Below are positions 1,769-58,450 of a stretch of DNA of 64,000 bases, in pieces. This DNA is from Actinomycetota bacterium. GTDB lineage: Bacteria > Actinomycetota > Actinomycetes > S36-B12. Positions within the stretch are counted from its first letter, which is position 1, and the number at the start of each line of letters is the position of its first letter. The stretch is taken from contig JAUSDJ010000031.1 of the NCBI GenBank assembly GCA_030650795.1, positions 153,123-217,122 of the forward strand, read 5' to 3'. The translations under genes were made by a program, and so were the position numbers. The notes under the pieces are model-generated. The model made no database searches and was not told where the DNA came from. It worked only from the letters and a program-made list of their open reading frames with translations.

Positions 1769-1888
1769 GGAATCCTCGACATTACAGCGAGACCAGGGTT
1801 GCATGAATCTGACGACCTCGCGGCGTGCGATCTGAGGTCTCGACTACTGCAGCTGCAGCAATACGCACCGCGGCCTTGATCGGCACGC

Positions 1889-3325: not shown

Positions 3326-3365
3326 TTGCGTGGTTGTCCCGAAGCAGCCAGATCACCGAATCATC

Positions 3366-4064
3366 CTAGAACTGCTCGAGTTCACGGGCCTTTACCAAGG
3401 ACTCCAGAGTGCCGATGTCGATCACCTGAGTCGACATCTTGAGCACATTGATGCGCCCGAGAAGCAAGGGAATCAGATCTCGGCTGATATCAGCCGAGTC
3501 AGGCGGGAGCTGTTCAATTGCGTCAACGATCATCGGCGAGAACGCAAAGGTTGCCGCACTTGCCAGCGCCGTTGGCGGGTTCACCACTTTCTCGTGGAAG
3601 CCAATGACGACCCGGCGGTCATCCAGTTCCACGACCCCGAATGCGCTGGGATCATCAGCGATGAACGTAAGCATCGTCATATCGACGCCGCGAGGTCGCT
3701 CCTGGAATGCGAGTCGAAGTTCGGTGAGATCGAAGTCGAAGTAGTTGTCAGCATGCAACACCATGCCGTCTGATCCTTGGAAGAAATCCCAATTTCGTCG
3801 AAGGGTTCCAGCGGTGCCAAGCAGCATTGGTTCGTGCGTGAGTTGAATTGCATCACGCCACTCACTTGAGCCAACCCATTCGCGAACCTGTGACTCAAGA
3901 TGATGGGTATTGATCAAGAACTCAGTTACCCCGGCGGCAGACAGCTGCCGCAAGAGGCGTCCGAGGATGGGCTCTCCCCCTACTTCAACAAGACACTTCG
4001 GCACCGATTTGGTCAGTTCCCCGAGGCGCGTGCCAAGACCAGCGGCCAAGAGCAGTGCCCTCAC
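3366..4064 (-). CDS. sugar-1-phosphate nucleotidyltransferase (HddC/GmhD-like NTP_transferase)
   Basis: N-terminus MRALLLAAGLGTRLGELTKSVPKCL matches the LAAGxGTRL signature of sugar-phosphate nucleotidyltransferases. The GTG start overlaps the upstream stop (GTGA at 4061-4064). Confidence 0.75.
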   Translation of the reverse strand: MRALLLAAGLGTRLGELTKSVPKCLVEVGGEPILGRLLRQLSAAGVTEFLINTHHLESQVREWVGSSEWRDAIQLTHEPMLLGTAGTLRRNWDFFQGSDGMVLHADNYFDFDLTELRLAFQERPRGVDMTMLTFIADDPSAFGVVELDDRRVVIGFHEKVVNPPTALASAATFAFSPMIVDAIEQLPPDSADISRDLIPLLLGRINVLKMSTQVIDIGTLESLVKARELEQF

Positions 4065-6557: not shown

Positions 6558-7684
6558 GCGAATGCCAAATATGCATTGGCTGTGGCTGTGGCTGTGGCCA
6601 TCCAAGTGGATTCCTGCGCACGTTCGCGGCCAAGCCCCTGCTTGGCGACTCGATCAACAGAACTGTTGAGCACACTTTCGATCGTGACGGCCAGGCTCTC
6701 GGCATCGCCTGAACTGAAAAACCAGCCAGCATCACCTGCGACCTCATGGAAGATGGGAATGTCCGAGGCGATGAGCGGACAGCCAGCCGCCGCGGCCTCC
6801 AGGAGTGGCAGCCCGAAGCCTTCCATTTCGGACGGGAAGACAAATGCAGTTGCCCGCTGGTACAGCGCAGCGAGCTCGGCATCAGTCGGGGTCAGAGCGC
6901 AAAAGCGATCAGTTCTTGCCGCCGAACCGACCATGGCGAGTTCCTCGTCAGTCACTGGCGCGCCAGCAACAACGAGGCCGATGTCGTGACCCCGATTGCG
7001 CACAAGTTCCAGTGCTGCACACAGCAAGTCAAAACGCTTGTAGAGCGCCCTGGCACCGACGAACAGGAGATACGGAAATGCGATGGGTGCTTGCACCGAT
7101 TCAGTCTGTTCGAAGAACTCCGATCGCACGCCAAGCGGTGTAACCACGACTTTGGCTTCATTGCCTGGCAGCAACTCATTGAAGAGCCCCGCCGTAGTCT
7201 GCGAAATGGCAATAACGAGATCAGCCCGGCTCGCTAGTTCACGTTTGCCGCGATGTGGATCCGCCCAACGCCTCGCTTCTCCCCCAACGGCGAACATGTC
7301 GTATATGGAGACGGCAATGCGGGTGCCGTGCGCAAGATCGGATTTCATCGGGCGGTAGGACGTGGCATGGAGCCAATCGAATTGCTCGGACTTCCCCCGT
7401 GAGCCTGCCCGGTACCGCAGATAACTGTCCTTGATCAGGTCTTCGCTGTTCACCATGCGCGGCACGCCACGCGGCACCAACCGAAGCGTGGGCATCGCCG
7501 CAGTCATCTCGGGCAGGGCAGCAAGCAGGTGCTCATTACTGCAGCGCGAGAACGTCAGGCTCGGCTCAATGCCCAACTCCGGATGATCGGCCAGACATCT
7601 GATCAACTCCGAGAAGTACCGAGTGATACCGCCGCGCTCCTGGCGCACGAACATCTCGCGGTCATATGCCACGCGCATGCTCAT
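6554..7684 (-). CDS. glycosyltransferase family 4 (GT-B, Glycos_transf_1-like)
   Basis: MSMRVAYDREMFVRQERGGITRY start is typical of GT4. C-terminal FVFPSEMEGFGLPLLEAAAAGCPLIASD is the EX7E-type GT4 motif. Start chosen at the Met preceding the conserved N-terminus. Confidence 0.75.
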   Translation of the reverse strand: MSMRVAYDREMFVRQERGGITRYFSELIRCLADHPELGIEPSLTFSRCSNEHLLAALPEMTAAMPTLRLVPRGVPRMVNSEDLIKDSYLRYRAGSRGKSEQFDWLHATSYRPMKSDLAHGTRIAVSIYDMFAVGGEARRWADPHRGKRELASRADLVIAISQTTAGLFNELLPGNEAKVVVTPLGVRSEFFEQTESVQAPIAFPYLLFVGARALYKRFDLLCAALELVRNRGHDIGLVVAGAPVTDEELAMVGSAARTDRFCALTPTDAELAALYQRATAFVFPSEMEGFGLPLLEAAAAGCPLIASDIPIFHEVAGDAGWFFSSGDAESLAVTIESVLNSSVDRVAKQGLGRERAQESTWMATATATANAYLAFA

Positions 7685-9473: not shown

Positions 9474-10760
9474 CTACAGATTCACCCAACCGCGAGCGTT
9501 CTGACTCTGCGTGGAACCAAGCCGACCCTGGGTGTCGAGCAGCCGGGGGCTGGTCGCAAGCGCCTGCGGGATCAGATAGCAATCATGGGCTTGCAGCAGC
9601 ACTGCGCAATCAGCCAAGGCTGCAGCTGCGGGAAGGTCAACAGCCTTCGGCACCATCACCTCGTCAACGATCCACTCCTCTACGTAGGGATCATGAAACG
9701 TCACAAGCGCACCTTGCCTGCGCAGCTCCTGAAGCACGGCGATCGATGGGCTCTCGCGCAAATCGGCAATATTGGCTTTATAGGTGATGCCCAATAGCAG
9801 AACCGATGCCCCAGCGAGTTCGATCGATTCCTGATTCAACAGTTCCTGCAGCCGATGCACGACGTAGTTGGGCATGCTCGCGTTGATCTCTTGAGCCAAC
9901 TCGACAAATCGAAGACTCTGGCCCAGTTCGGTGCGCACCCGGTGGCCAAGGTAATTGGGATCAATGGGGATGCAGTGCCCACCGACGCCTGGGCCGGGCC
10001 GGAAGGCATGAAAGCCATAGGGCTTGGTCTCGGCGGCGGCAATGACATCCCAGAAGTCGATGCCCAGGAGATGGCTGACCTTGGCGAGCTCGTTGACCAA
10101 GGCAATGTTCACGTGGCGGTAGGTGTTCTCCAGCAGCTTGGCCATCTCAGCCTCTTTCAACCCCTTGGTGCGGACCACCTGCTCGGTCAAAGTCAGATAG
10201 AACTGCTCCGCCCGGTCCGCGCACTCAGTGCTGAAGCCACCGACAACCTTCGGTGTATTGCTGAAATTCCAGCGCCGATTGCCCGGATCAATCCGTTCCG
10301 GACTGAAGGCGAGCGAGAAGTCAACGGTTGCCTTAAACCCATTTCGCTCCAAGATCGGCTTCACGACCTCTTCAGTCGTACCGGGGTAGGTGGTGGATTC
10401 CAGCACCACCAATGGACGCTTGGCCGCATCGATATGACCAGCAATCATGGCCGTGGCGGCCTGAACAGCACGAAGATCTGGGCTGCCGTCGGCAGATAGC
10501 GGGGTTGGAACACAGATGATGAAAACATCAATGTCAGTCAGTTCATTGATGTCATTGGTGGGATGAAATCCTTGTCCGAGCCATTTCCCAACGAGGTCTG
10601 ACGCAATGTCATCGACATGGGATTCTCCAGCCGCTAAGCCGACGACAACCGCCTCATTGACATCGAAGCCCACGACCTGGTGCCCAGCCTCAATGCAGGC
10701 GCCAATCAGCGGCAGCCCGACATAGCCAAGACCGAACACGGCAATTCGCTGACCCACCAC
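9474..10760 (-). CDS. nucleotide-sugar dehydrogenase (UDP-glucose/GDP-mannose dehydrogenase family)
   Basis: IAVFGLGYVGLPL NAD-binding start, central GGHCIPIDP catalytic-Cys motif, length 428 aa. Confidence 0.85.
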   Translation of the reverse strand: MVGQRIAVFGLGYVGLPLIGACIEAGHQVVGFDVNEAVVVGLAAGESHVDDIASDLVGKWLGQGFHPTNDINELTDIDVFIICVPTPLSADGSPDLRAVQAATAMIAGHIDAAKRPLVVLESTTYPGTTEEVVKPILERNGFKATVDFSLAFSPERIDPGNRRWNFSNTPKVVGGFSTECADRAEQFYLTLTEQVVRTKGLKEAEMAKLLENTYRHVNIALVNELAKVSHLLGIDFWDVIAAAETKPYGFHAFRPGPGVGGHCIPIDPNYLGHRVRTELGQSLRFVELAQEINASMPNYVVHRLQELLNQESIELAGASVLLLGITYKANIADLRESPSIAVLQELRRQGALVTFHDPYVEEWIVDEVMVPKAVDLPAAAALADCAVLLQAHDCYLIPQALATSPRLLDTQGRLGSTQSQNARGWVNL

Positions 10761-10840
10761 TCGTCCCCCCGTTCCGGCCTTCTCAGGAAGAGCAGACTAG
10801 TGGGCCTCCTCAGCATGAGGTGACAAATCTCCACTTACTC

Positions 10841-12277
10841 TCACTTGATGGCTTCCGCAAAGGTCATGATCGTGCCCAACAGTTTGACATTGGCTTCGTC
10901 AAGCAGTCGCGCGGCGGACTCCAATTGCTTGCATGTGGTTCGCCCACGTCCCACAACGATCACCGCGCCATCGGCAATAGCGCCGATTACAGCAGCATCC
11001 GTACTCGACAGCAGCGGCGGAGCATTGATGATCACCAGATCCACTTGTGTTTTCAGATCAGCGAGCAGGAGCTCCATCTGCTCGGAGGCCAGAAGGGCAG
11101 TGGCATCGGCGAGATGAGGCCCGCGTGGAAGCACGCGCAGCGCGCCACGATGCCAAGTCAACTCGGCTTGACTCAAGGGCATAACTCCCGCGAGCACGTC
11201 GGGCAGCCCCACTTCAGAGTCAACGCCGAGATACGCCCCCAGTTTGGAATTATGCAAACACGCATCAATCAACATCACTGATCGTCCCGACTCAACAAAA
11301 CTCATTGCAAGATTCACTGCTGTGGCAGTTTTACCCGAGCCAGGGTTTGCACTAGTGATCACCACTGCGGCCGGGAAAACCTTTGACTGCTGAAGAGCTG
11401 CCTGACCAAGCGCCCGCTTGAGATGCTGTTCGATCTCGGGGCGAGGGGTCATCAAGATCTGATTGAAGGACCTCGAGGTTGACGCAATATGACCAAGATT
11501 CTCCGTGCGAAGACACTCCTGCAGATCAGCCTGGGTCTGGATCGGCGCTTGACCGCGCAACCGTGCCGGCAATCGGCTCTTGAGGCTGAATCCGGGCGAA
11601 TTGAACGCAGGCTCATTGAGCGCATCGTCCTGAGCGCCTGTCTCCATCGCATTGGCTACGAGTTGGCCTGCTTGAGCTATCGCGATGAAAGCCTCTGCCA
11701 GCGCTGTTGATGCATGGGCCACCTGATCAAGAGTTCCTCGATGATCAATATCCCCGTGACGATCCTCAATGTCGTCGTGCTGCGGATCCCAGGATGCGAG
11801 CATCCCTCGAGCTGCATCCATCTCAACCACAAGCCAACGAAGTCGATCGAGGGTGGAGTCCGGGAAAGGTTGCGCCCCTGGCGGTGTCGAACCGCTTGCA
11901 ACAAATTGAGCGACCCACGTCGCCAATCGAGCGGCCTGGCGAATCGTGAAGGTGTCTTGCCGGCTTGCCGGATCCATCCGAGCAATCCAAGCTCTCTGAG
12001 TTCGATCAGCCGTCAGCAGCAAATCTGCTCGCTTCAGCAATGCCGGGGTGAGTTGCCGCGAATCGCCAATCGCTCCAGCAAGGCCAACGTAACTTGCTGC
12101 TTGCGGGCACATCGCGTCACCGACCGCGGCAAACGTACCAGCCCAACTCACGTGGACCGCAGGACGAAGCGCAACAAGGGCACTGCGCATCACGCTTGCA
12201 GCCAGCGGCGAACGGCAGACGTTCGCCGAACAAGCAACTAGCACCTCGAAGGATTCCTGCACACGCAATCTTCCCAC
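10841..12277 (-). CDS. fusion of LMW phosphotyrosine phosphatase domain and BY-kinase-like P-loop ATPase domain
   Basis: N-terminus VLVACSANVCRSP is the CX5R(S) PTP loop. C-terminal domain has Walker A SANPGSGKTATAVNLA, Walker A'-like VMLIDACLH and Walker B-like DLVIINAPP. Confidence 0.7.
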   Translation of the reverse strand: MGRLRVQESFEVLVACSANVCRSPLAASVMRSALVALRPAVHVSWAGTFAAVGDAMCPQAASYVGLAGAIGDSRQLTPALLKRADLLLTADRTQRAWIARMDPASRQDTFTIRQAARLATWVAQFVASGSTPPGAQPFPDSTLDRLRWLVVEMDAARGMLASWDPQHDDIEDRHGDIDHRGTLDQVAHASTALAEAFIAIAQAGQLVANAMETGAQDDALNEPAFNSPGFSLKSRLPARLRGQAPIQTQADLQECLRTENLGHIASTSRSFNQILMTPRPEIEQHLKRALGQAALQQSKVFPAAVVITSANPGSGKTATAVNLAMSFVESGRSVMLIDACLHNSKLGAYLGVDSEVGLPDVLAGVMPLSQAELTWHRGALRVLPRGPHLADATALLASEQMELLLADLKTQVDLVIINAPPLLSSTDAAVIGAIADGAVIVVGRGRTTCKQLESAARLLDEANVKLLGTIMTFAEAIK

Positions 12278-12339: not shown

Positions 12340-12804
12340 GTGCTCATCCCCGTCCTCAACCCATTGTTCATTGAGAACGCCCGAAGCATCATGGATCCTG
12401 CTTGGCCGATTTCGTTTGAAATTCACGACTTTGTCCAAGCCGCACTTCCTCATCAATACTCCGCGGTCTACGCCTTGGATGTCCTGGAACACATTGAACC
12501 GCGCGATGAGTTCGATTTTCTCTCGAATTTGGTGGCCTCATTGGTGGACGATGGAATAGCGGTCATCGGCATGCCGAGCATTGAAAGCCAACCCCACGCG
12601 AATCCCGCCAGTCGTGACGGCCACGTCAATTGCAAGTCGGGGCCTGATTTGAAGGAATGCCTCCGGACTCACTTCCAGCAAGTCTTCGTTTTTTCTACGA
12701 ACGATGAGGTGATCCACACGGGGTATCCCCCGATGGCCCACTATTTGCTGGCTCTTTGCGTCGGTCCTATTCGCACCTGTTGGCCAGTGCTGCCAGGACT
12801 CTAG
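12340..12804 (+). CDS. truncated class I methyltransferase-like protein (possible gene remnant)
   Basis: Contains only post-motif-I regions (YSAVYALDVLEHIEP, DDGIAVIGMP). No GxGxG motif in any frame upstream. The ORF track start (12094) overlaps the convergent-strand gene, so the internal GTG 12340 is used. Start is very uncertain. Confidence 0.35.
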   Translation: MLIPVLNPLFIENARSIMDPAWPISFEIHDFVQAALPHQYSAVYALDVLEHIEPRDEFDFLSNLVASLVDDGIAVIGMPSIESQPHANPASRDGHVNCKSGPDLKECLRTHFQQVFVFSTNDEVIHTGYPPMAHYLLALCVGPIRTCWPVLPGL

Positions 12805-13188
12805 AGGTTCATTGAGCATTCCTGAATGGAGCCTCTCCTCGATGGAATCCCCCGCATCTCACCTCGCACAGGCCCGAGCAAGCCCGCGTTGCTTGCGATG
12901 GCTGGGCATGTCGTGAGCCGCTTGGGTCTGCCCGCCACTGGGAGGAGCTGTGCGCGAATACATCGATCTACGCCTCCGCGGCTCGTTCGGTACTGCCACT
13001 TACGCGCAAATCTGAATCGTTGATTCGCCGGCACTAGTCCACGTCTGCCGCAAGCGAATTGGATGGTTTTTTCGTCACGTTCATGTCGCAACTACGTACC
13101 AATTCCTTCAAGGATCGGCCTTCCCCGTTAGCCTGCAAATAGAGCTCCCGATGGGCGCTTGGGCAAACATGCGTCGAGGAGAACTCAA

Positions 13189-13485
13189 ATGAAGAGAACA
13201 CAGAAATTAGCCGCAGCGATCACCGTTATGACTGCCATTCCGTTGGTAGGCCTAGCCCTAGCCATGCCAGCGAATGCCGCTCCAGCAGATCTGCTGGAGG
13301 CGGTAGGGGTTCCAGCAACTGGCCTCTGCACTGATGTCGTGGCACCAGCAGCGAACTTGGCCGGCGTGGCCAATGGCAGTTGGAGCAAGTCATGGGGAGT
13401 GTGGATCTCACCGACCCTTGGTGGTCCGGTGTGCGTTCGCACCCTTTGGTACAACAACTCCACACAGTTGTGGGATCGCCGCTAA
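13189..13485 (+). CDS. small secreted protein (signal peptide, two Cys)
   Basis: GAGGAG Shine-Dalgarno 7 nt before ATG 13189. MKRTQKLAAAITVMTAIPLVGLALAMPANA/AP looks like a Sec signal with an AxA site. Followed by a terminator hairpin. Confidence 0.5.
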   Translation: MKRTQKLAAAITVMTAIPLVGLALAMPANAAPADLLEAVGVPATGLCTDVVAPAANLAGVANGSWSKSWGVWISPTLGGPVCVRTLWYNNSTQLWDRR

Positions 13486-13520
13486 ACGTGCGGCTAGTAC
13501 CACCTGCTTGAAAAGAATGC

Positions 13521-13562
13521 GGCCCCCCGAACTCAACTTGAGTTTCGGGGGGCTTTCTTTCT
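13521..13562 (+). terminator. rho-independent terminator
   Basis: CCCCCCGAACTCAA / TTGAGTTTCGGGGGG stem with one bulge, followed by CTTTCTTTCT. Lies 36 nt after the stop of the small secreted protein gene. Confidence 0.6.
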
Positions 13563-13805
13563 CATGGAGTCTTTCCTCCACAGTGACCGCTCCCCTGGCC
13601 TCCCAGCAGGCCTGCGCATGGCGCGCAAGCCGATGCTTCCTCGATGCCTGCGTGACTCCAACTAATGAGTCGGGAGTCCTGAGTCGCGGGGCGACTTAGG
13701 CGTGGGCGCTCAGGTCGAACTCGGTTTCATAGGCGATACTTCGCACATGTCTTGTCTGATTTGCTTCGGCTTGATCTGCAGTAGTAGTGCTCGTACGGAT
13801 CTATC

Positions 13806-15836
13806 GTGATTGCAGACACCAGCAATCCGGTCCTGATTGCGCCCAACACTTACTGGGTCGGCGTCAATGACCATCCGCTGGGGCTTCAGTGCAACCCATA
13901 TCTGATCCTTGACGGTGATGATGCTGTGTTGATCGATCCGGGGTCAGTCCTCGACTTCGAGTATGTGCGCGCCCAGGTGGAGAAGCTGATCCCAATCAGC
14001 AGCATCAGCACGATCGCACTGAGCCATCAGGACCCTGACCTCTGTTCAAGTGTGACGCTGTTCGAGCGCGCTGGGTTCGAGGGGCACATTGCCACGCACT
14101 GGCGGGCATCGGTTCTCCAGCGCTATTACGGCATCACCTCGCCGTTCTACCTGGTCAATGAGCATCAGTACGCGCTGACGCTGCGGTCGGGCAAGGTCAT
14201 CGAATTCATCCCAACCCCTTACTTGCACTTCCCCGGTGCAGTAGCCACGTTCGATCCGCAGACCAGGGTCCTGTTCTCGGGGGATCTCTTCGGCGCCTTC
14301 TCGACCCACTGGTCCTTTCGCGCCGACAAGTCAACCTATATCGAGGGCATGAAAGCGTTCCACGAGCATTACATGCCCAGCAACGACAACATCCGGCCGG
14401 TGATGGAAATGCTGCTGGCGATGGACATCGACGTCATCGCGCCTCAGCATGGATCCATCATTGATGCCGACATCGCGGACTACATCGTTGCCCTCCGGGA
14501 GCTTGAGTGCGGCACGATGCTCAATCCGATACGGCACGAGCTTGCCGCCTCAGGCGGATTCACCAGCATCGTCGAGCAGGTGATCCGCAGGTTGCAAGGG
14601 CTCTACCAGGCGGACGAGGTGCTCGGCGTCGTGCAGCACATGGAGATGACGATTGATCCTGGAACCTTGACGATTGGGGAATTTTCCTACACCGGCGTGG
14701 AACTGTGGAATGCCCTGTTCCAGACCATGGCTGATGCGGGGAAGCAGTCCTGGCTGACGGCGGTTGAGCCATTGGTCCGCAAGCTCGCAGCCGAGTACGA
14801 CATCGAGATGCCCCAGTACTACCTGAACGAGCGATCGACAACCCAGGTTCGCATCGACCAGCTTGCCCAAGAGATCGACAGTCTGCGCGCGCTCAATGTC
14901 CGCCTGGACACCACGCTGCGCGAATCGGAGGACAAGCTCACCAGATGCCCGCTGACAGGCCTTCGGAATGAGCGCTTCTTCACCGAATTCCTGCCGGCGA
15001 GCGTTGCGCAGGCCGAGGCCGCGGGCCAGGACCTCACCTTGGTCTATGTCGGAGCAGACCGCATCGCTGACGTGACCTATGCACGAGGCAAGCAGGCAGG
15101 CGATGAGGTCATCAAGAGCGTGGGTTACCTGCTTGAGCGGGGATTGGAGCGAAATGAGCAGCTGTTCCGCCTCGATGGCCCCAACTTCGTGCAGATGCTC
15201 ATCGAGGTGTCCGGCGAGCGAGCCGTGCTGACCCGAGTCGAGCGCATCCGTCGCGAGGTTGCCATGTCCACGATCTCACTGGATCCCCTGACGGTCTCCA
15301 TCGGGACGGTATCCCTAAGCGAGGCGCGCACCCATCAGCCAGACCCAGCCGAGCATGCATCGCTCATGGCCCGAACTGGACTGCTGCGTCTTCGTGTCGC
15401 GAGCAATCGCGGCGGCGACACCATCTGCTCGACATCGGACATCGAGCATCCGTCCACCTCGGCCGGAACGATTGTGATCGCCGACCCGGATCCGGTGAAT
15501 ATCGACGTGCTCACGACTGCGCTGCAGGCCATGAACTTCGAGACAATCGGTTGCTCAGATGGGCTTCAAGCGCTTCAGGCGATCGAGCATGGGTCCATCA
15601 GTGTCGTCATCGCCGAGGCGGTCTTGCCGAAACTCGATGGTTTCGCGTTGCGCGAGGCGCTGTCGTCGGCGTCTGCCTTCAGGGAGCTGCCGTTCCTCAT
15701 GATGGGATACGAGAAGGACGCCGAGACAGTCGCTCGCGCCCAGAGCCTGGGGATCAACCACTTCTTCAAGAAGCCATACCTGCTGTCCGAACTGGTCGGC
15801 ACTGTGCGTCTTGAGCAGCGACCGCGTCTGAGATGA
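13806..15836 (+). CDS. di-iron (FDP/ODP-like MBL-fold) sensor with degenerate GGDEF domain and pseudo-receiver domain
   Basis: N-terminus: SHQDPD, LHFPGA, LFSGDLFG, APQHGSII (flavodiiron-like lactamase-fold motifs). Coiled-coil linker. GGDEF fold with RLDGPNF in place of RxGGDEF. C-terminal receiver fold with VVIAEAVLPKLDG (Glu at the Asp position), LMMGYE and FFKKPY. Confidence 0.8.
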   Translation: MIADTSNPVLIAPNTYWVGVNDHPLGLQCNPYLILDGDDAVLIDPGSVLDFEYVRAQVEKLIPISSISTIALSHQDPDLCSSVTLFERAGFEGHIATHWRASVLQRYYGITSPFYLVNEHQYALTLRSGKVIEFIPTPYLHFPGAVATFDPQTRVLFSGDLFGAFSTHWSFRADKSTYIEGMKAFHEHYMPSNDNIRPVMEMLLAMDIDVIAPQHGSIIDADIADYIVALRELECGTMLNPIRHELAASGGFTSIVEQVIRRLQGLYQADEVLGVVQHMEMTIDPGTLTIGEFSYTGVELWNALFQTMADAGKQSWLTAVEPLVRKLAAEYDIEMPQYYLNERSTTQVRIDQLAQEIDSLRALNVRLDTTLRESEDKLTRCPLTGLRNERFFTEFLPASVAQAEAAGQDLTLVYVGADRIADVTYARGKQAGDEVIKSVGYLLERGLERNEQLFRLDGPNFVQMLIEVSGERAVLTRVERIRREVAMSTISLDPLTVSIGTVSLSEARTHQPDPAEHASLMARTGLLRLRVASNRGGDTICSTSDIEHPSTSAGTIVIADPDPVNIDVLTTALQAMNFETIGCSDGLQALQAIEHGSISVVIAEAVLPKLDGFALREALSSASAFRELPFLMMGYEKDAETVARAQSLGINHFFKKPYLLSELVGTVRLEQRPRLR

Positions 15837-18715
15837 CAGCCCTAAGTGAGACTGCCGTACTGCTGCTAGCTGTCGCGTCGATGCTGGCGTGCGCGGCGGC
15901 GGTGCTGGCCACGGTGCTGGCCAAGGCATCGCGGACGCGCCGCATGCGCGTGCAGCGGCAGTTGGAGCACGAGATCTCGCGCCTTGAACCCGGGGATGCG
16001 TTCGCCGCTCCAAAGAGCCAAACTCGTGAGGTCCTTGCTGCCTACGTCGATGTGCGTCAGTCCGCGACCCTGTCCCCGCTGACGGTCGAGGGAGTGCGAG
16101 CATGGCTTGTTGACCAGGGCGTGGAGCGGGTACTGATCCGCAAACTCGGTTCGCGGCGTGCCATTCGGCGTGTTGAGGCGGCGACCGCGCTCGGCTACCT
16201 GCCCGGTGACTCGGTGCGGCAGGCTCTTGTCGATGCCCTGGGGCGTGAACAGCGCGACACTGTGCGGCTGCGGATCGCCGTTGCCCTGCATCAGGTGGAC
16301 CCGGATGCGAGCGTGGCGATCCTCTTGGACAGCATCCTGAGCGCGAGCGAGTGGATTGCGGTTCGTGCCAAGGGCTTACTGTTGGAGGCAGGGCGATCGT
16401 TCTACCTCATTGCGCGCACCATGCTCGCGACCACAGAGACGCGTCTCACCGGCATCCTCATCGACTTCGCGGCCGTGTATCCCGCCACGGACCTGCGCGA
16501 TTTCCTCGTTGCCCGCGTATGGTCGAAGGACGCGGACGTCTCCATTCACGCGGCCCAGGCATTGCGGGCTATGTATCCATCGATAATCGCGGACGAGCGT
16601 TACATGGATCACCCGCTCTGGCAGGTGCGGGCCAATGCCTATGGGGCCTTGGCCAGCACACCGAGCCGTCGAACTCTGGAGCGCCTCCTCGCGCGCACAT
16701 CCGATATGGCTCAGGCGAGCTCCTGGGCGCGAGCGACTCCAGATTACGACCTGGAGTTCGCCGAGTTGCAGGTTGCGGCAGCCAATCTCCTGCGCACTCA
16801 GCCGAGCCTTCTGCCGACCGTTGCCGAGGCGTTCGTTTCCACTGACGTCCCCGAGTACCGGAGTGCCCTGGCGTCGCTGCTCTCCTCACGAATCCAGTAC
16901 TACTTCATGCAACTGATTGGCCCCGACGCCGATGCCGCGCGCGCGATCGTGCGCGCGATCGTGGCCTCAGGCAGGAGCAGTGAGCTGATCGGCTTCTTGA
17001 ATCGCAATCGCAATGTGGAGCTCGAGAACGAGGTCCTTGCATGCATCCAGCCCCTGCTTGAAGCAAGTCCGCAACTGGTGCAGGAGCTGGAGTGGTATCT
17101 CGCGCCGAGGATCCTGGACAAGATCGGCCTCGAAGAGCGCAGTCGCGCCACACCGCCAAGAGTGGAGCAACGCGTCAAGTCGAAGATCGTGCGGATGTAC
17201 GCCCTGCTGGTCGTTGCGCTGCTGGCCTTCCCACTTGCGTTCTGGCTGCTCAACCGCTCGGAGTTCGGTGTGCTCTCTCCACTGGACCTGCTGCGCGAGT
17301 ACGTGACCGCGTGGAACTCGGCTCTGCTGGTGTACATCGCTGCGCTGCAGGTGGCGACTCTCGCCATCCTGGTCTTCGCCGTCATCGGCGTGCGTGCGCA
17401 AGCCAGATCCTGGCGGGCCAAGCCGTACTCGCTGCTGTTTCGTCCCAAGGTGCTGCCGTCAGTCTCGATCGTGGCCCCAGCCTTCAATGAGGAGTCGACG
17501 ATCGTTGAGAGCGCGAGTTCCCTGCTGGGCATCCAGTATCCCGATTTTGAGCTAATCATCGTGAATGACGGTTCCCGCGATGCCACCATGGAGCGACTCA
17601 TCGAGCACTTCGAGCTCGAGAAGGTGGATCGCACGATCCCAACGACCCTGGCGACCAAGGCCGTGCGCGGCATCTACGCCAGTCCCGCGGTCCCGCAGCT
17701 GCTCGTGGTTGACAAAGACAATGGAGGCAAGGCCGACTCCCTGAATGCTGGGATCAACATGAGTACCAAGGAGTACTTTTGCGGCATCGATGCAGACTCG
17801 CTGCTCGAGTCCGACTCGATGCTCAAGGTCGCTGCTGGGTGCCTGGATTCGGTCGACGAGATGGTGGCCGCGGGCGGGAACGTGTTCCCGATCAACGGCT
17901 GTACGGTCGAGCGCGGCGCCCTTGTCAAGGTCGGCCTGGCACGCTCGCCATTGGCGCGGTTCCAGACCATCGAGTACATCCGGGCCTTCATGGCAGGTCG
18001 CGTCGGCTGGGCCTATGTGAAGTCGCTCTTGATCATCTCGGGGGCCTTTGGGCTGTTCCGCAAGGAGCGCGTGATCCAGGCGGGCGGGTACTTGACCGAA
18101 TCGGGTCCTTACCGCCAGGACACCGTCGGTGAGGACATGGAATTGGTCGTCCGCCTGCGACGCGAGATGATCGAGTCGGGTATCCCCCACCAGATCAACT
18201 ACGCCTACAACGCAAACTGCTGGACCGAGGTGCCCGAGACCATCTCTACGCTGCATCGTCAGCGCGACCGCTGGCAGCGCGGACTGGTCGACATACAGTT
18301 CCTGCACCGCAGGCTGCTGCTGAACCCGAGATACAAGTCCACCGGTCTTATCGGGATGCCGTACTACTTCGTGTTCGAGCTGTTTGGCCCGTTGATTGAG
18401 GCGCAGGGGTACATCATGCTCATCCTCGCGGCAATCACTGGGCTGCTTGAGCCGGCAATGGCGATTGCGCTGTTCACGACGATCGTGCTCTGGGGAATCC
18501 TCGTCTCGACCCTGTCGCTGTACATCGCGGAACTCCAAACCAGCTATTTCACTCGACGCGAGATCGCCACCATGCTCTGGTACGCAGTCCTGGAGAATTT
18601 TGGCTTCCGGCAGCTCGCGAGCCTGTGGCGCGTCTCGGGGTTCTTCAGTTCACTGCGCCGACCACGAGGGTGGGGTGAGATGCGCCGCAAGGGGTTTGCA
18701 GTTGCCGCCCAGTGA
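15833..18715 (+). CDS. HEAT-repeat domain fused to GT2 processive polysaccharide synthase (PgaC/IcaA/cellulose-synthase-like)
   Basis: ATGA start/stop overlap with the upstream sensor gene. N-terminal TM helix, then about 430 aa of HEAT/PBS-lyase-like repeats (e.g. RRVEAATALGYLPGDSVRQALVDALG). TM pair, then GT2 core (IVNDGSRD, DKDNGGKADSLN, GIDADS, GAFGLFRKE, QRDRWQRG) and C-terminal TM helices. Confidence 0.8.
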   Translation: MTALSETAVLLLAVASMLACAAAVLATVLAKASRTRRMRVQRQLEHEISRLEPGDAFAAPKSQTREVLAAYVDVRQSATLSPLTVEGVRAWLVDQGVERVLIRKLGSRRAIRRVEAATALGYLPGDSVRQALVDALGREQRDTVRLRIAVALHQVDPDASVAILLDSILSASEWIAVRAKGLLLEAGRSFYLIARTMLATTETRLTGILIDFAAVYPATDLRDFLVARVWSKDADVSIHAAQALRAMYPSIIADERYMDHPLWQVRANAYGALASTPSRRTLERLLARTSDMAQASSWARATPDYDLEFAELQVAAANLLRTQPSLLPTVAEAFVSTDVPEYRSALASLLSSRIQYYFMQLIGPDADAARAIVRAIVASGRSSELIGFLNRNRNVELENEVLACIQPLLEASPQLVQELEWYLAPRILDKIGLEERSRATPPRVEQRVKSKIVRMYALLVVALLAFPLAFWLLNRSEFGVLSPLDLLREYVTAWNSALLVYIAALQVATLAILVFAVIGVRAQARSWRAKPYSLLFRPKVLPSVSIVAPAFNEESTIVESASSLLGIQYPDFELIIVNDGSRDATMERLIEHFELEKVDRTIPTTLATKAVRGIYASPAVPQLLVVDKDNGGKADSLNAGINMSTKEYFCGIDADSLLESDSMLKVAAGCLDSVDEMVAAGGNVFPINGCTVERGALVKVGLARSPLARFQTIEYIRAFMAGRVGWAYVKSLLIISGAFGLFRKERVIQAGGYLTESGPYRQDTVGEDMELVVRLRREMIESGIPHQINYAYNANCWTEVPETISTLHRQRDRWQRGLVDIQFLHRRLLLNPRYKSTGLIGMPYYFVFELFGPLIEAQGYIMLILAAITGLLEPAMAIALFTTIVLWGILVSTLSLYIAELQTSYFTRREIATMLWYAVLENFGFRQLASLWRVSGFFSSLRRPRGWGEMRRKGFAVAAQ

Positions 18716-18793
18716 GCGACAGTCGAGCTTTGGTGAGTGCTTCGTGTGCGATGTATGGACAGATCGGAAGTGGCGAGGGTCAGCACCCTGTAA

Positions 18794-20047
18794 TCAACGG
18801 GACATTATTTGCACTAGACGCTCCGCAGTGGTTTCCAGGCCCCACCGCTCAACTGCAGTCTTCCTTGCGGCCTGGGCGACCCGATCATGGATCGGCGAAG
18901 GTAGTGCGACGATTTCTCGCATCTTCGTGGCGAGATCTCGAACGTCGCCAACACGAAAGCGCGTGAGATGGGCTTGCGCTGTTGGATAGTTTTCGGATAG
19001 TCCCATTGCGACCTCAGCCAGTCCGGCATGAAACGCGACCAATGGAGGCGAACCGCACGCTGCCGCTTCCGCGGCAACCAAGCCGAAGGCCTCGGGAAGC
19101 ACCGACGGCACGACGCTGACTGTCGCCAAGGGCCACAGATGCGCAAGATGACGGTGACCCAGGGGTCCAGTGAACAGGACAGATGATCCGCACTCTGCCT
19201 CAAGTTCCTCGCGAAGCGGCCCGAAGCCCGCAATGACAGCCCGCGCTGGAACATCGAGAAGGGCTCGCATCAGCAGGTCAACACCTTTTTCTTTGCTTAG
19301 CTTTCCCACGTACACAACCGTTGGTTGCTGGTCGGAAAGGAACGCAGTGAGACGGTCGGCGTTACCAGGATCGGGTAAGCGGTAGTTGGATCGATTGCTG
19401 TTTGGCGGGTCCAACTGACATTGAGCAATCAACGATGTTAACGCCTCATCCGGGCTCTGCGGATGAAGTCGCTGGGTGTCGACTCCGGGCGCCACCACAT
19501 GCACGTTGTGTTCGTAGTCGCCAGGACCAACGACCTCGCGCAGCCGGTGAACGATATGTAATGATCCCGCAATAACCGCGTGGGCTTGGCGTAGTGACGC
19601 AACGGCCCACTGGATGAGTTCCGGGTTGCCGCTCATGGCGAATTCAAGTTCAGATCCGTGGACCATCACAGCGAAAGGCAACCCAGACGCCGCACCCACG
19701 GGAGCCCCCATTAGCAGATGGTTGGTGATCAGGAAATCGGCCGGACCTTGAAGCCTGATCACCTCCGCAGCTTGTTGGACGAAGTGTTCGCGCTCCTCAG
19801 AGGCGAAATCCTGGAGGAGCCGCGGCGTCATGTCGGAGTACTGATCGAGGACAAACACCGGAAGGTCGCCATCCATCGGTGGGCGCACCGCGCGTGCTCC
19901 GCCGAGGTCGAACCGAGCCGGATCCGCGTCCTGACTCAAAACGGTCACGTCATGACCCTGGCTGCTCAGCTCACGGGCAATCGATTGGGTGAAAATGTTC
20001 GAACCCGTGCCATCCAGCAAATAGCCATGCCAGATCAAAATCCTCAC
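18794..20047 (-). CDS. glycosyltransferase family 4
   Basis: MRILIWHGYLLDGTGSNIFTQSIARELSSQGHDVTVL start and C-terminal VVPSVLPEAFGLVAAEAAACGSPPLV (EX7E-like motif). Confidence 0.8.
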   Translation of the reverse strand: MRILIWHGYLLDGTGSNIFTQSIARELSSQGHDVTVLSQDADPARFDLGGARAVRPPMDGDLPVFVLDQYSDMTPRLLQDFASEEREHFVQQAAEVIRLQGPADFLITNHLLMGAPVGAASGLPFAVMVHGSELEFAMSGNPELIQWAVASLRQAHAVIAGSLHIVHRLREVVGPGDYEHNVHVVAPGVDTQRLHPQSPDEALTSLIAQCQLDPPNSNRSNYRLPDPGNADRLTAFLSDQQPTVVYVGKLSKEKGVDLLMRALLDVPARAVIAGFGPLREELEAECGSSVLFTGPLGHRHLAHLWPLATVSVVPSVLPEAFGLVAAEAAACGSPPLVAFHAGLAEVAMGLSENYPTAQAHLTRFRVGDVRDLATKMREIVALPSPIHDRVAQAARKTAVERWGLETTAERLVQIMSR

Positions 20048-20393
20048 TGAACGAGCCCCCTAACATCACGCCCGAGCGGGTTGGGGCTACCTGCACCGTA
20101 GCCCCCATTTCAAAGTTTTTGACTTTGCTCCGGCTTCCCGGACACCGATGAGCAGGACACGATGGGGTTTCGGAAGGAGAACGTACCCCTGTGAATACTC
20201 CGTTGGAGTTGCGCCGTAGGTCGCGGGTGTAGGCGAAGTACTCGCATTGGTCTCAAGCGCGAGGAACGACTGATGCATACTCGCGCAATCGTGAAAGCCT
20301 ACGCGGATCTGGTCAACCAGAATTTCGGTGGCGTGATCAACAAAGACAACCCGTCCGGAAACCGGGAGATAGTCAGGCTCCTAATTTGAGTGG

Positions 20394-21191
20394 CTAGTTC
20401 TGGCAGACCTTTTCGATGGCTTTTATCCCCTCAATATCGCCGCTTCCGATCTGCCGATCGACCGGCAAATTGGTATCTAGGTACCTGAACATGACATTGC
20501 TGGGATCGTCGCTGTCTGCAAGACCCAGTGCGTGGCCAAGTTCATGCATGAAGAGCAATCGACGGTCGAAACTGTTTGTTCTGACTAGATAGTCCGTGCT
20601 GACTGCGATATAGCCATTGACGATCTCCTTGCTGCCTGCAAACACTCGACTTGGCGATCCATACCCGACGACGTTCTTTGTGATGATCGACGATTTCGAG
20701 TCGGGAACAAAGTACACGGCAATATTGCGACTAATGTCCTTGACGGGCTTGACCGTGGTGGTCGCATCGTTGTAGGAGACCGCTAGTTCTCCACCATCGG
20801 CAAAGGTCAGCCCCGATGCCTTCGCCCAAGCATCGAAGGCCGCCCCAAGGTCGGGGCGCACGACGGCTGCCTGTTTAGGTGTCAGGTTCGACGTGTCCGT
20901 CGTCCACGAGATGGGAGCCGAGCAGGTGGCCCAACCACTGCCAGCGAATGCCGCATCGGTGTAGATGGAGCCCACACGGGTTGTCCCCCACGCAAGCACG
21001 CTCGTGGCTGCGACGGCTGCAATCGTGCACAACACGGTTATCAATGGGCGCCGCCGATAGGTGAGACGGTAGTGGCGTTCGTATTTGAACCATGTCCGCC
21101 GGCGAGTAATACCGTCATCGAAATAGTCACGCGCACGGCGCAATGGGTGACTCGGATTCCTCCGCTCGTGGCCCAGCGGTGACTCAGACAT
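20394..21191 (-). CDS. membrane-anchored zinc metalloprotease (matrixin/snapalysin-like, HEXXHXXGXXD)
   Basis: HELGHALGLADSDDPSNVMF zinc-binding motif with Asp as third ligand and a Met-turn candidate. N-terminal TM helix LITVLCTIAAVAATSVLAWG. Confidence 0.65.
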   Translation of the reverse strand: MSESPLGHERRNPSHPLRRARDYFDDGITRRRTWFKYERHYRLTYRRRPLITVLCTIAAVAATSVLAWGTTRVGSIYTDAAFAGSGWATCSAPISWTTDTSNLTPKQAAVVRPDLGAAFDAWAKASGLTFADGGELAVSYNDATTTVKPVKDISRNIAVYFVPDSKSSIITKNVVGYGSPSRVFAGSKEIVNGYIAVSTDYLVRTNSFDRRLLFMHELGHALGLADSDDPSNVMFRYLDTNLPVDRQIGSGDIEGIKAIEKVCQN

Positions 21192-21728
21192 CTCGCCTCC
21201 TCAAGGTCAGGCTACGCCACTGCATGAGTTCAAATCTGGATCTTTGCCGCAAAGTGGCTCGGACGGTGTTGAGCACCTGCATTTAGGAGATTAGCAATGC
21301 GAGCGGGACGAGGAGTTCTCCGTCTTGCGCGAACTGGGCGTGGCAAGCAGCCCTCATATCGACACGACGAAGTACTTCGGTATCGCCTTACCGAGATTGG
21401 GCTTCCTTGACGAGGGAGAATTGCCGCGTCAATTGTCCAGATCGTGGACGATGCTCAAGATTGCCGTCACATGGCGATGGCTGTAGAAATTCGAAGTCGT
21501 ACGGGGGCAATTGGTCGGCGAATCAGCTGACGCTATTCATGGATTTTGGCAGGCAGTTGAGCGAATACGGCGACCGAAGACTGCGTCCGCATGCTGCGTA
21601 CCACCAGGTGCGTGGACACTCGTGACGCCTAGGTCCATTTCGGACATTGCTCTGTGCCGCAGTCCATTGAGTCATCATTCTGACTAGCATGAGTGGCCTA
21701 CTGATTAGCTTAATTTGGAGGCCACCAT

Positions 21729-23438
21729 GTGCGTCATGTTCCACGCGCTTCTGATGAGTCGCACGTCACGGAGCTGTTGACGATCATGCAACGCGGGAGC
21801 GGAGGCGGGCTCTATGACCCGTCGGAGAAGCCCGTCGAACTTGACGATGGAGTCTGGTGGGTCGGAGTGCGGCTTTTCGACAACACTTTCCAATGTCATG
21901 CGTACCTCATTGAAAACGGCACGGATTCGGTGCTGATCGACCCGGGTTCCAATGTCACGATTGATGGTGTCCTGGCGAAGGTTCGACAAGTCATGCCACT
22001 GGAGAACATCAAATATCTCGTGTGTCATCACGCCGACCCGGACGTGTGCTCATCACTGCACGATCTGACTGGCATTCTCAAGCGTGACGACGTCCAGGTC
22101 ATCACTGAGTGGCGAGCACGGGAATTACTTGACCATTACGGTCACCGGTTTCCGTACTACCTGCTTGAGGACCACGCTTGGCGCCTTCCGCTCGCAGGCG
22201 ATCGCGAACTCCAGTTCCAACTCACCCCGTACCTACATTTTCCCGGAGCTTTCGTAAGTTTCGACACGCACACCCGTACCCTCTTCTCGGCTGATCTGTT
22301 CGGCGGCTTCGTTCCGGATTCCAATATTCTCATCGGGACCGATCTTGAATACATTCTCGAGGCGGCTCGCCCATTCCATCAGCACTACATGCCGAGCCGT
22401 CAACTGCTTGAATTGGGGCTCACTCGCATCCAGCAGCACTGGCCAAACATTGCTCGCATAGCGCCGCAGCATGGGCACGTCATCGAAGGCGAACTCGTGC
22501 AGCCGGCCTTCGAGGGGCTCAAGCAGTTGGAGTGCGGAATCTTTACTCTCTCCGACGCGGATCTTGATCTTCAACACCTCATGCGCCTGAGCGAAAGCAG
22601 GGCGCACATCCTGCAAGCACTGCTCGAAGCACATTCCCCCAGGGATCTCGTTGCACACATCAACCGAATCCTTCATGACATTCAAATTGCTGCTCAAGTC
22701 GTCCTTCGGCTCTTCCTGCCAGACGAACGCCAGTGGGTGGAATGGGGGGTCGAGGGCGCCAAGACAGTGCACAGTGGGACGCATCGAGGTTGGACCACGA
22801 TCCCGCTAGACGGCATGCCTAAGGCGAATCTCCTAGTAAGCGGGCGCGACGGTGACCCGCTCGACAAAGACTTCACATCGATGCTGGATGCGATGGCGGC
22901 AATCATTCGCCCAACGGTCGAGCAGTATCTGGCCGAGCGGCGACTCCACCAAGAGGCTGAGACCGACCAGTTGACGGGGTTGGGAAATCGTCGAGCGCTG
23001 GAACTGGTCATCCCGGCGGATCGCTACTGTGTCGTGGCAATGGACGTGGATCACTTCAAGCGAGTCAACGACGAATTCGGGCATCCGACTGGGGATCGAG
23101 TGCTGCAAAGGGTTTCCGCGGCTGTTCGCAATACGGCCCGATCCGGGGATGGGGTATTTCGCACTGGAGGTGAGGAGTTCCTTGTCTATTTGCCTAGGGC
23201 GACAAAGGAAGCGGCTTTTCGCGCGGCCGAGCGCATTCGCGCTGCTGTGTCATCCCTCGATCTCACAGGTGAGGCTCCTGGAGGCCACGTCACTCTCAGC
23301 GCTGGCATCGCCGAACTTGAGCGCAGTGATGCCGGTCGCCTCGACGACGTCATGTTGCATGCAGACGAGGCGCTCTATCGAGCCAAGCGTGGAGGACGCA
23401 ACCAAATATCGGTCTACCCGACCACGACGCCGAACTGA
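21729..23438 (+). CDS. di-iron (FDP/ODP-like) sensor diguanylate cyclase (intact GGEEF and I-site)
   Basis: GGAGG 7 nt before GTG 21729. CHHADPD, LHFPGA, LFSADLFG and APQHGHVI motifs are paralogous to ORF 13806. C-terminal GGDEF domain has VAMDVDHFKRVNDEFGH and RSGDGVFRTGGEEF. Confidence 0.85.
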   Translation: MRHVPRASDESHVTELLTIMQRGSGGGLYDPSEKPVELDDGVWWVGVRLFDNTFQCHAYLIENGTDSVLIDPGSNVTIDGVLAKVRQVMPLENIKYLVCHHADPDVCSSLHDLTGILKRDDVQVITEWRARELLDHYGHRFPYYLLEDHAWRLPLAGDRELQFQLTPYLHFPGAFVSFDTHTRTLFSADLFGGFVPDSNILIGTDLEYILEAARPFHQHYMPSRQLLELGLTRIQQHWPNIARIAPQHGHVIEGELVQPAFEGLKQLECGIFTLSDADLDLQHLMRLSESRAHILQALLEAHSPRDLVAHINRILHDIQIAAQVVLRLFLPDERQWVEWGVEGAKTVHSGTHRGWTTIPLDGMPKANLLVSGRDGDPLDKDFTSMLDAMAAIIRPTVEQYLAERRLHQEAETDQLTGLGNRRALELVIPADRYCVVAMDVDHFKRVNDEFGHPTGDRVLQRVSAAVRNTARSGDGVFRTGGEEFLVYLPRATKEAAFRAAERIRAAVSSLDLTGEAPGGHVTLSAGIAELERSDAGRLDDVMLHADEALYRAKRGGRNQISVYPTTTPN

Positions 23439-23635
23439 TAGTTGAGACGGCAATGCGCCGCAGAACCTTCCGCTCCGAATCTCATGCCGCACGCGTGAGG
23501 ACCTTGGCCGAAAGCACGGCTTTACCAGCGGGTATTGGCTGATCGCACAGCGAAATTTTGGTGATCGCAATTTCGAGTCCAACTAAGTGGGTTCAGTTCA
23601 GTTTCTGCGCTGGGGCCTTCAATATGCAAGCAGCG

Positions 23636-24490
23636 TCAGCTAGCAGTAAGACGCTCAGCCGAGTCAACAACATTGGCCAGCAGCATGGCTCGCGTCATGG
23701 GGCCGACGCCGCCCGGATTTGGCGCAAAGAAGTCAGCGACTTCCATGACATCAGGATGAATGTCGCCAACAAGACCTGCATCGGTGCGGGTGATGCCAAC
23801 GTCTAACACCGTAGCTCCCGTGCGAACGAGATCGGGAGTGATCATGTGTGGTACGCCAGCTGCCGCAACGATGATGTCGGCCTGACGAAGAAAGGCGCCA
23901 ACTTCACGCGTTCCCGTATGACAAAGGGTCACCGTTGAGTTCTCCGAACGACGAGTCAGCAGCAGGCCAAGCGGACGACCCACCGTGATGCCACGGCCAA
24001 CGACAACAACATGCGCGCCTTCAATTTCGACCGCATACGTGCGAAGCAACTCAACGATGCCGCGTGGAGTGCAGGGCAGCGGTGCGGCAACTCCTAGAAC
24101 GAGGCGGCCAAGGCTCATCGGGTGCAAACCATCGGCATCCTTCAGCGGATCCATCAGCTCAAGCACGCGATTGGCGTCCAGATGCTTGGGCAGCGGCAAC
24201 TGCACGATGTAGCCTGTCACAGCTGGATCCAAGTTCAGCCGAAGGATTTCCGACTCCAGCTCAGCCTGCGTAGTTGAGGCAGGAAGGTCAACGCGGACCG
24301 AGGCGATGCCCACTTCCTGGCAATCTCGGTGCTTGCCGCGCACATATGTCTGACTGCCTGGATCATCACCCACGAGAACAGTGCCTAACCCAGGAGTGAT
24401 CCCACGGGCGCGCAGAGCATCGACCCGTATCTTCAGTTCGCCTTTGATTCGTGCCGAGGTTGCCTTGCCATCCAGTATCTGTGCGGTCAC
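23636..24490 (-). CDS. folD: bifunctional methylenetetrahydrofolate dehydrogenase / methenyltetrahydrofolate cyclohydrolase
   Basis: Full-length match to the FolD pattern: [10 protein letters not shown]..., [37 protein letters not shown]. Confidence 0.95.
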
Positions 24491-58331: not shown

Positions 58332-58450
58332 GAGCTCACCCCACTCTGTAGGGGTGAATAGGACAACACCGACCTTGAAGTGTGTATAAAAAAAAGTCTG
58401 AAACATTTCTGATATGCTTTCACGCAGGTTCTTTACACAGGAGATGCCCG

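Follow-up and report, generated by a model that had tools for sequence, protein, structure and literature searches.

A putative ODP-GGDEF sensor diguanylate cyclase and its non-duplicate ODP neighbor in an actinobacterial genome

The locus and the gene product

The DNA analyzed here, referred to below as the window, is a stretch of 64,000 nucleotides (nt) from the metagenome-assembled genome of an Actinomycetota bacterium (assembly GCA_030650795.1, contig JAUSDJ010000031.1, positions 153,123 to 217,122 of the forward strand). Our subject is a plus-strand gene at 21786..23438, whose product joins an ODP-type di-iron sensor domain of the metallo-beta-lactamase fold to a GAF-like module and a GGDEF diguanylate cyclase domain; we refer to such proteins as ODP-GGDEF proteins. 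A second ODP protein is encoded nearby, at 13806..15836, next to a glycosyltransferase gene.

The open reading frame (ORF) of the ODP-GGDEF gene covers 21729..23438 on the plus strand and would yield 569 amino acids (aa) from a GTG at 21729, or 550 aa from an ATG at 21786, 19 codons downstream; residue numbers throughout refer to the 569-aa frame. The NCBI entry for this product, MDO8732919.1, is named 'diguanylate cyclase' and is the 550-aa form that starts at ATG 21786. DNA similarity to the closest relative, which lies in a different assembly (L001), begins at 21782, and the N-termini of ODP-GGDEF homologs fall mostly near the Met of this ATG. Although a GGAGG at 21717-21721, 7 nt 5' of GTG 21729, favors the alternative, ATG 21786 is more likely to be the real start.

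Every motif that a preliminary description of the sequence had quoted for this protein was located, namely CHHADPDV (aa 99-106, plus-strand nt 22023-22046), LHFPGA (aa 169-174), LFSADLFG (aa 185-192) and APQHGHVI (aa 245-252) in the N-terminal part, and, in the GGDEF domain, DVDHFKRVNDEFGH (aa 439-452) and RSGD (aa 471-474, plus-strand 23139-23150), followed after five residues (GVFRT) by GGEEF (aa 480-484, 23166-23180). The same description had proposed a di-iron-type sensor domain and a GGDEF domain in one protein, and this was borne out by the Pfam matches and by the presence of all catalytic and inhibitory-site (I-site) residues.

The sensor domain and its metal ligands

The sensor domain occupies aa 35-272 (21831..22544, plus strand) and was recognized by Pfam, by sequence matches to the PDB and by Foldseek. 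The Pfam ODP family (PF19583) matched aa 54-249 with an E value of 9e-53 and 179.5 bits, compared to a cut-off of 27.2, over profile positions 1-194 of 194. In a PDB sequence search with the N-terminal half, the crystallized ODPs of Thermotoga maritima (6qrq/6qwo, 5e-23) were the best matches, together with those of Treponema denticola (6qnm/6r9n, 1.6e-16), and the flavodiiron protein (FDP) 1ycf (4e-11) ranked below both. An AlphaFold2 model of the full-length protein, made from 66 homologs, had a mean predicted local distance difference test score (pLDDT) of 88.6, and Foldseek aligned its N-terminal domain with 6qrq/6qwo at a TMt score of 0.79-0.84 and a root-mean-square deviation of 2.8-3.4. 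ODP is a documented Fe(II)/O2 sensor for chemotaxis, and is also found fused to signal-transduction domains (PMC6978683, PMC7666581, PMC7319448).

Ligands were assigned by alignment, under rules taken from the PDB sequences and from a secondary source (PMC7785958). The predicted ligands, all encoded on the plus strand, are H101 (22029), D103 (22035), D105 (22041), H170 (22236), D189 (22293) and H248 (22470), which align with FDP residues H79, E81, D83, H146, D165 and H226, respectively, and Q247 (22467), the Gln of APQHG, at the position where ODPs carry Gln for His. V106 aligns with FDP H84, so that this His is replaced; in ODP, a Gln stands in for the missing FDP His (PMC7785958). Among 121 members of the ODP-GGDEF family the six His and Asp ligands are invariant, and Q247 is conserved in at least 90%. 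Because the Gln demanded by the ODP rule is also present in the protein encoded at 13806 (APQHGS), the predicted binuclear metal site is complete by that rule in both window proteins, and mapping onto FDP and ODP proteins found all seven ODP ligands intact in each.

The replacement of the FDP motif HxExDH by HxDxD[VL], noted earlier for both window proteins, is evident in the alignment. It had been taken for a deviation shared by these two proteins; however, a joint alignment gave the T. maritima and T. denticola ODPs a pattern identical to that of the ODP-GGDEF protein (HQDPDV ... LH ... D ... PQHG, with HQDPDV in both 6qrq and 6qnm). Because both crystallized ODPs share the pattern, HxDxD[LV] is the signature of the ODP family and no peculiarity of the window. 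Compared to an FDP, the protein has HADPDV for HxExDH, with Glu changed to Asp and the last His to Val. Pfam found no flavodoxin domain in it, the C-terminal part being occupied by the GAF-like and GGDEF domains, and the N-terminal domain should therefore be unable to act as an FDP-type reductase and would serve as a sensor instead.

Four residues, C56, H57, C99 and H100, are invariant in the ODP-GGDEF clade and absent from the T. maritima and T. denticola ODPs. The cysteines C56 (21894, in QCH), C99 (22023, in CHH) and C269 (22533) vary little or not at all within the family. C269 is part of an 'xCG' motif kept by all ODP groups, including the crystallized ones, whereas the chemotaxis ODPs have neither C56 nor C99. 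These three cysteines may have a redox-related or metal-related role.

The linker and the cyclase domain

Between the sensor and the cyclase, at 22545..22964 on the plus strand, lie a small GAF-like alpha/beta domain (aa ~273-378) and a long signaling helix (aa ~380-412). No Pfam family matched this linker (aa ~273-412) at E<=10. The isolated linker domain was modeled with a pLDDT of 86.9, and is predicted to begin with two helices and a sheet of five strands, after which a helix of 30 residues leads into the GGDEF domain. The top-ranked Foldseek matches of the linker were all GAF domains (3p01, 4g3k, 3ci6) but scored modestly (E 5e-4 to 1e-3, TMq 0.5-0.62), and the best matches of the whole chain were cyclases of GAF/PHY-helix-GGDEF architecture (5llw, 4zmu). 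From these models, the linker is read as a minimal GAF-like transmitter module with a signaling helix.

The GGDEF domain (aa 410-562; 22956..23414, plus strand) was recognized by Pfam (PF00990, E 3.8e-36, aa 410-559), by PDB matches and by residue conservation. The closest solved GGDEF domains are those of active cyclases, namely SadC (1e-29), WspR (3e-26) and DosC (4zve, 2.6e-24). Across 66 homologs, residues D439, D441, K444, N447, D448, D456, R471, D474, R478, G480, G481 and E483 do not vary, and K553 and R557 are conserved in at least 90% of the ODP-GGDEF homologs. The active site (A-site) thus contains GGEEF together with the metal- and GTP-binding residues (DxD..K..ND, GD, the R before GG, and the K/R of the last helix), and RSGD supplies an RxxD I-site at the canonical spacing of five residues from GGEEF. 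In an alignment of 121 ODP-GGDEF sequences, the commonest variants of the A-site and I-site segment all retain RxxD-x5-GGEEF. Taken together, the conserved residues and the activity of the closest solved domains predict a catalytically competent, product-inhibited diguanylate cyclase. Some members of the family have GGEE[M/I/L/V] instead of GGEEF (loci L047, L050-L054, L057, L062, L068 and L083, mostly from Acidimicrobiia), and these retain RxxD and the remaining catalytic residues.

Distribution of the family

A search with the whole protein returned 1751 matches at E<=1e-10. The best 120 of the 1751 all combine ODP and GGDEF in ~490-600 aa at 46-89% identity, and their hosts are Actinomycetota known from metagenome-assembled genomes (Nanopelagicales and relatives) and freshwater picocyanobacteria (Cyanobium, Synechococcus, Vulcanococcus). 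Among species representatives, one genome each, which did not include the window's own genome and gave a best match of 55% identity, 271 relatives were found; they widen the range to Acidimicrobiia, Nitrospirota (Magnetobacteriaceae), Spirochaetales, Desulfobacterota, Planctomycetota and others. The gene is a well-preserved, already annotated member of a widespread, database-recognized family, and does not represent a new type of system.

The ODP and GAF-like part, used as a query against a library of representatives at 50% identity, gave 974 clusters at E 1e-3, 481 at 1e-10 and 169 at 1e-30. Among 74 evenly sampled cluster representatives, every one of which contained ODP, GGDEF was the commonest partner (34/74), followed by the receiver domain REC (17/74), histidine-kinase ATPase (6/74) and the signaling domain of methyl-accepting chemotaxis proteins (MCP; 4/74), with EAL, SpoIIE and a nucleotide cyclase in one representative each (1/74). 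This variety of partners indicates that ODP is a modular sensor domain, with GGDEF as its commonest output among these relatives.

The census also bears on whether the N-terminal domain could be an enzyme, either an O2 or NO scavenger or a hydrolytic metallo-beta-lactamase, which has no regulatory role and leaves the GGDEF domain to work independently. Such a function would agree with the homology of the domain to the catalytic cores of FDPs and to members of the Lactamase_B superfamily. However, the protein lacks a flavodoxin or rubredoxin domain that could act as an electron source, and FDP His84 and Glu81 are replaced in the same way as in the sensor ODPs. ODP is fused to signaling outputs as varied as GGDEF, histidine kinase, MCP, EAL and SpoIIE, and the two domains of this protein are joined by a GAF-like domain and signaling helix, as in other sensor cyclases. 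We regard a purely enzymatic N-terminal domain as highly improbable, the least credible of the explanations considered here.

The picocyanobacterial ODP-GGDEF proteins (P0071, P0073, P0090, P0091 and P0107; loci L019-L045) are 47-50% identical to the actinobacterial ones, and fall within them in a neighbor-joining (NJ) tree. This suggests a cross-phylum transfer of ODP-GGDEF between freshwater picocyanobacteria and Actinomycetota, which share a habitat.

The second ODP protein and the question of duplication

The protein encoded at 13806..15836 on the plus strand is 100% identical to MDO8732915.1, and consists by Pfam of an ODP domain (4.7e-60), a weak GGDEF domain (1.7e-14) and REC. At the position of GGEEF it has RLDGPNF, and it lacks RxxD. 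The preliminary description credited it with the same N-terminal motifs as the ODP-GGDEF protein, which holds for LHFPGA; the others are similar rather than identical (SHQDPDL, LFSGDLFG and APQHGSII). Homologs of this protein make up a separate family of ~675 aa with ODP, weak GGDEF and REC, and its full-length identity to members from Clostridia (Desulfosporosinus, Acetobacterium, Desulfitobacterium) is 42-46%. In all 121 members of the family the GGDEF motif is degenerate (e.g. KLQGFTF, RLDGPNF) and RxxD is absent, while the metal motifs are conserved.

Because all 121 members, including those from Clostridia, are degenerate, the loss of catalysis is ancestral to this family. A loss of catalysis, with the protein becoming a partner of the neighboring synthase, had been proposed earlier, and both the missing motifs and a 4-bp overlap with the glycosyltransferase gene agree with this; the loss was not, however, a local event. 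In the REC part (~15450-15836), a Glu (E604) stands where CheY has its phospho-acceptor Asp57, as it does in 118/121 family members. The protein would thus be a pseudo-cyclase and pseudo-receiver, predicted to work independently of catalysis and phosphorylation behind an apparently intact di-iron site. The degeneracy of the GGDEF motif across the family casts doubt on the annotation of MDO8732915.1, and its public name, 'diguanylate cyclase', is probably wrong.

The gene with which it overlaps by 4 bp, and to which it is translationally coupled through this overlap, lies at 15833..18715 on the plus strand and encodes a 960-aa protein with HEAT repeats and a processive-type GT2 glycosyltransferase domain, which weakly matched PgaC/IcaA-type synthases. 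This two-gene cassette with its 4-bp overlap is common to Actinomycetota and Clostridia; it was located at 13806-18715 in the window, at 8001-13036 in L005, at 1683-6616 in the actinobacterial contig L086, where it lies within a histidine operon, and at 4717-9620 in L001, and it is present in Desulfosporosinus acidiphilus. ODP-pseudoGGDEF-pseudoREC genes are always joined in this way to a HEAT-GT2 gene. An ODP-GGDEF gene adjoins the cassette in L001, and none lies nearby in the Desulfosporosinus or L086 loci. With its ODP-pseudoGGDEF-pseudoREC protein and HEAT-GT2 partner, the cassette is the more unusual object of this neighborhood.

The window and L001 differ in gene order. In the window, ODP-pseudoGGDEF-REC and GT2 come first, then a GT4 glycosyltransferase (18794-20047, minus strand), a matrixin-type M10 peptidase (20394-21191, minus strand) and finally ODP-GGDEF, so that the GT4 and M10 genes separate the synthase cassette from ODP-GGDEF. 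In L001, whose ODP-GGDEF protein is 81% identical to that of the window, a PAS-GGDEF-EAL gene, the M10 gene, GT2 and ODP-pseudoGGDEF-REC all lie on the minus strand, followed by a divergent ODP-GGDEF gene on the plus strand. The differing orders imply that the cluster outlived an inversion. Linkage of the ODP-GGDEF gene to the cassette was seen only in this lineage, in the two related genomes of the window and L001; it hints at a functional coupling of the two ODP genes, which is plausible.

A further member of the supposed circuit, described as an EAL protein, is encoded at 59932-61221 on the minus strand. It does contain EAL, with an apparently complete site, but it is not a plain EAL protein, as it also has a GGDEF domain (GSDEF) with an intact RxxD; it has no sensor domain. 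Its gene lies 36 kb from the ODP-GGDEF gene, between an AbiEi antitoxin gene and a helix-turn-helix (HTH) gene. A similar GGDEF-EAL gene occurs within 10 kb of the ODP-GGDEF gene in 6/79 other loci, which is a weak hint at best of a link between the two. The surroundings of the GGDEF-EAL gene in the window (58382-59278 and 61375-62461) comprise the AbiEi antitoxin gene on one side and the HTH gene with a small ORF on the other, a toxin-antitoxin-like setting.

These comparisons speak to the origin of the two ODP proteins. The preliminary description posits a duplicated sensor, which we took to mean a duplication at the level of this genome or its lineage. One copy would have retained cyclase activity, the other would have lost it and become a partner dedicated to the synthase, and both would form one cyclic di-GMP (c-di-GMP) circuit with the EAL protein. 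The occurrence of ODP and GGDEF-type domains in both proteins within 8 kb would fit this account, as would the L001 cluster, where the two genes are adjacent and divergent and a PAS-GGDEF-EAL gene is part of the same cluster, and the retention of the cluster despite the inversion. However, the two ODP domains in the window are only 38% identical to each other, within the 35-43% range of any cross-family pair. The ODP domain of the ODP-GGDEF protein has a mean identity of 64% to its own family and 39% to the other, and that of the 13806 protein has a mean identity of 61% to its own family and 37% to the other, with the own-family relatives extending into other phyla.

Phylogenetic analysis gave the same answer. 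Unrooted bipartitions were counted in 300 NJ bootstrap replicates of the ODP domains. Monophyly of the ODP-GGDEF family was recovered in 100% of the replicates, as was a split between the 13806 type with the crystallized chemotaxis ODPs, on one side, and the ODP-GGDEF type with the FDPs, on the other; a sister grouping of the two window proteins occurred in 0/300. The degenerate GGDEF and the Glu-bearing REC are ancestral in the 13806-type family, Clostridia included, the cassette exists without the ODP-GGDEF gene, and the ODP-GGDEF gene occurs without a 13806-type gene within 10 kb in 79/79 other genomes. Base composition also differs, with a GC content of 0.62-0.65 in the segment formed by the 13806 gene and the synthase gene versus 0.56-0.59 in the ODP-GGDEF gene, and GC at third codon positions (GC3) of 0.77-0.79 versus 0.64.

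By their sequences, the two ODP proteins are members of two old, separately widespread families that were brought together rather than duplicated in place. Beyond the common ancestry of all ODP domains, duplication in place was rejected on the identities, the tree, the ancestral degeneracy, and GC and GC3. The circuit with the EAL gene likewise found no support in linkage, given the 36 kb distance and the toxin-antitoxin-like neighbors, and we consider the combined account of duplication and circuit very unlikely. The GC and GC3 of the cassette, which are above those of its surroundings, suggest that it was horizontally transferred as a unit.

Proposed function and its alternatives

We favor the interpretation that the product of the gene at 21786..23438 is a cytoplasmic member of the ODP-GGDEF family and serves as a sensor diguanylate cyclase, that it operates by an ODP-type Fe/O2 mechanism, that its ODP neighbor is not its duplicate, and that its output is likely to concern exopolysaccharide or biofilm formation. 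We put the probability of this joint reading at roughly 0.7. The mechanism is modeled on what has been published for ODPs and for GGDEF cyclases coupled by a helix. The ODP domain would take up two Fe(II) and, like the chemotaxis ODPs as described, form a stable peroxo-diferric state with O2, and the apo, ferrous and peroxo states may differ in conformation or in subunit association. The GAF-like module and the helix could transmit such a change, and alter the way in which two GGDEF domains meet. Synthesis of c-di-GMP would then either rise or fall, and the I-site would cap the output. Because the gene is clustered with the synthase cassette, the GT4 glycosyltransferase and the M10 peptidase, its output is likely to bear on exopolysaccharide or on a biofilm trait.

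Several observations weigh against this interpretation. The ligand assignment rests on alignment, and the ODP domain of the ODP-GGDEF clade is only 26-29% identical to the crystallized ODPs and about as similar to FDPs, so that the sensed ligand (O2, NO, Fe(II) or another metal) could differ. Our literature search found no paper that characterizes an ODP-GGDEF protein biochemically. A second ODP gene or a synthase within 10 kb of the ODP-GGDEF gene was found in 0/79 other genomes. Finally, Pfam and alignment revealed no c-di-GMP receptor in the cluster, since the synthase lacks PilZ and the degenerate GGDEF lacks RxxD.

The first of these points leads to the most serious alternative, in which the binuclear site responds to something other than O2, such as the availability of Fe(II) (apo versus loaded), NO or H2O2, or binds Zn or Mn. 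ODP has been described as a sensor of both Fe(II) and O2 (PMC6978683), there is a structure of a Zn-reconstituted ODP (6qwo), and the clade is equally similar to the NO/O2-reducing FDPs and to the characterized ODPs. In addition, its hosts include oxic freshwater plankton (Nanopelagicales, Cyanobium/Synechococcus), for which O2 is rarely limiting and iron is. On the other hand, the first-sphere ligand set is that of the O2-binding ODPs, and we consider a different ligand less likely than O2.

A more ambitious extension would have the two ODP proteins of this actinobacterial lineage form a single iron/oxygen-gated switch on the HEAT-GT2 synthase, acting through pairing of their ODP or GGDEF domains or through relay of local c-di-GMP by the pseudo-enzyme. 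If true, exopolysaccharide synthesis would be controlled with neither PilZ nor RxxD as a receptor, and a glycosyltransferase would be linked to c-di-GMP and a di-iron sensor in a new manner. It is an improbable extension, and we give it less credence than a change of ligand. The sensor cyclase as such resembles several known systems.

The predicted protein shares with FDPs (Moorella thermoacetica FprA, 1ycf; Escherichia coli NorV) the metallo-beta-lactamase di-iron core and five of seven ligand positions (H, D, H, D, H). It differs from them in having HxDxDV for HxExDH and no flavodoxin, and in being a predicted sensor rather than a reductase. The hemerythrin-type di-iron cyclase of Vibrio cholerae follows the same sensor-linker-GGDEF logic, but its sensor has the four-helix hemerythrin fold. 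The globin-coupled cyclase DosC/DgcO (4zve) is similar in combining an O2-binding sensor, a helical linker and a GGDEF domain with an I-site, whereas its sensor is a heme globin, a fold unrelated to the metallo-beta-lactamase binuclear site found here. GAF/PHY-GGDEF cyclases, such as the Idiomarina bacteriophytochrome (5llw) and Pseudomonas aeruginosa Dcsbis (4zmu), also have a GAF-type module, a long helix and a GGDEF dimer; in our protein, however, the module is minimal, matches no Pfam family and lies downstream of ODP, and is probably a transmitter rather than the primary sensor. The chemotaxis ODPs of T. maritima and T. denticola are alike in fold, in the pattern H-x-D-x-D-[VILF] ... H ... 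D ... Q-H, in the 'FH..YM.S' helix and C-terminal 'xCG' motif, and in lacking flavodoxin. Unlike the ODP domain described here, which is connected by a GAF-like linker to GGDEF, they are stand-alone proteins of ~250 aa whose partner chemoreceptor signals to CheA (PMC6978683, PMC7666581).

Few sensor domains for O2/Fe(II) are known that do not use heme; ODP is one of them, and work on it has been limited to its role as a stand-alone accessory of chemotaxis. Among abundant freshwater plankton (Nanopelagicales-type Actinomycetota and Cyanobium/Synechococcus), the ODP-GGDEF family is common. The window supplies a full-length example that appears catalytically intact and lies beside a polysaccharide synthase, making it a reasonable candidate for a possible control of c-di-GMP and aggregation by iron or oxygen in freshwater plankton bacteria.

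Other features of the window

The GC content of the window as a whole is 59.7%. A search for structured RNAs with Rfam found no riboswitch or other RNA, either in the whole window at gathering thresholds or in 12700-23700 at E<=1. A scan for consensus promoters gave no upstream match, and terminator-like matches scored no better than shuffled sequence. Upstream of the synthase cassette, at 9474-12277 on the minus strand, are two genes that fit a polysaccharide-export locus, one for a UDP-glucose/GDP-mannose dehydrogenase and one whose product fuses a low-molecular-weight phosphotyrosine phosphatase to a ParA/Wzc-like ATPase.

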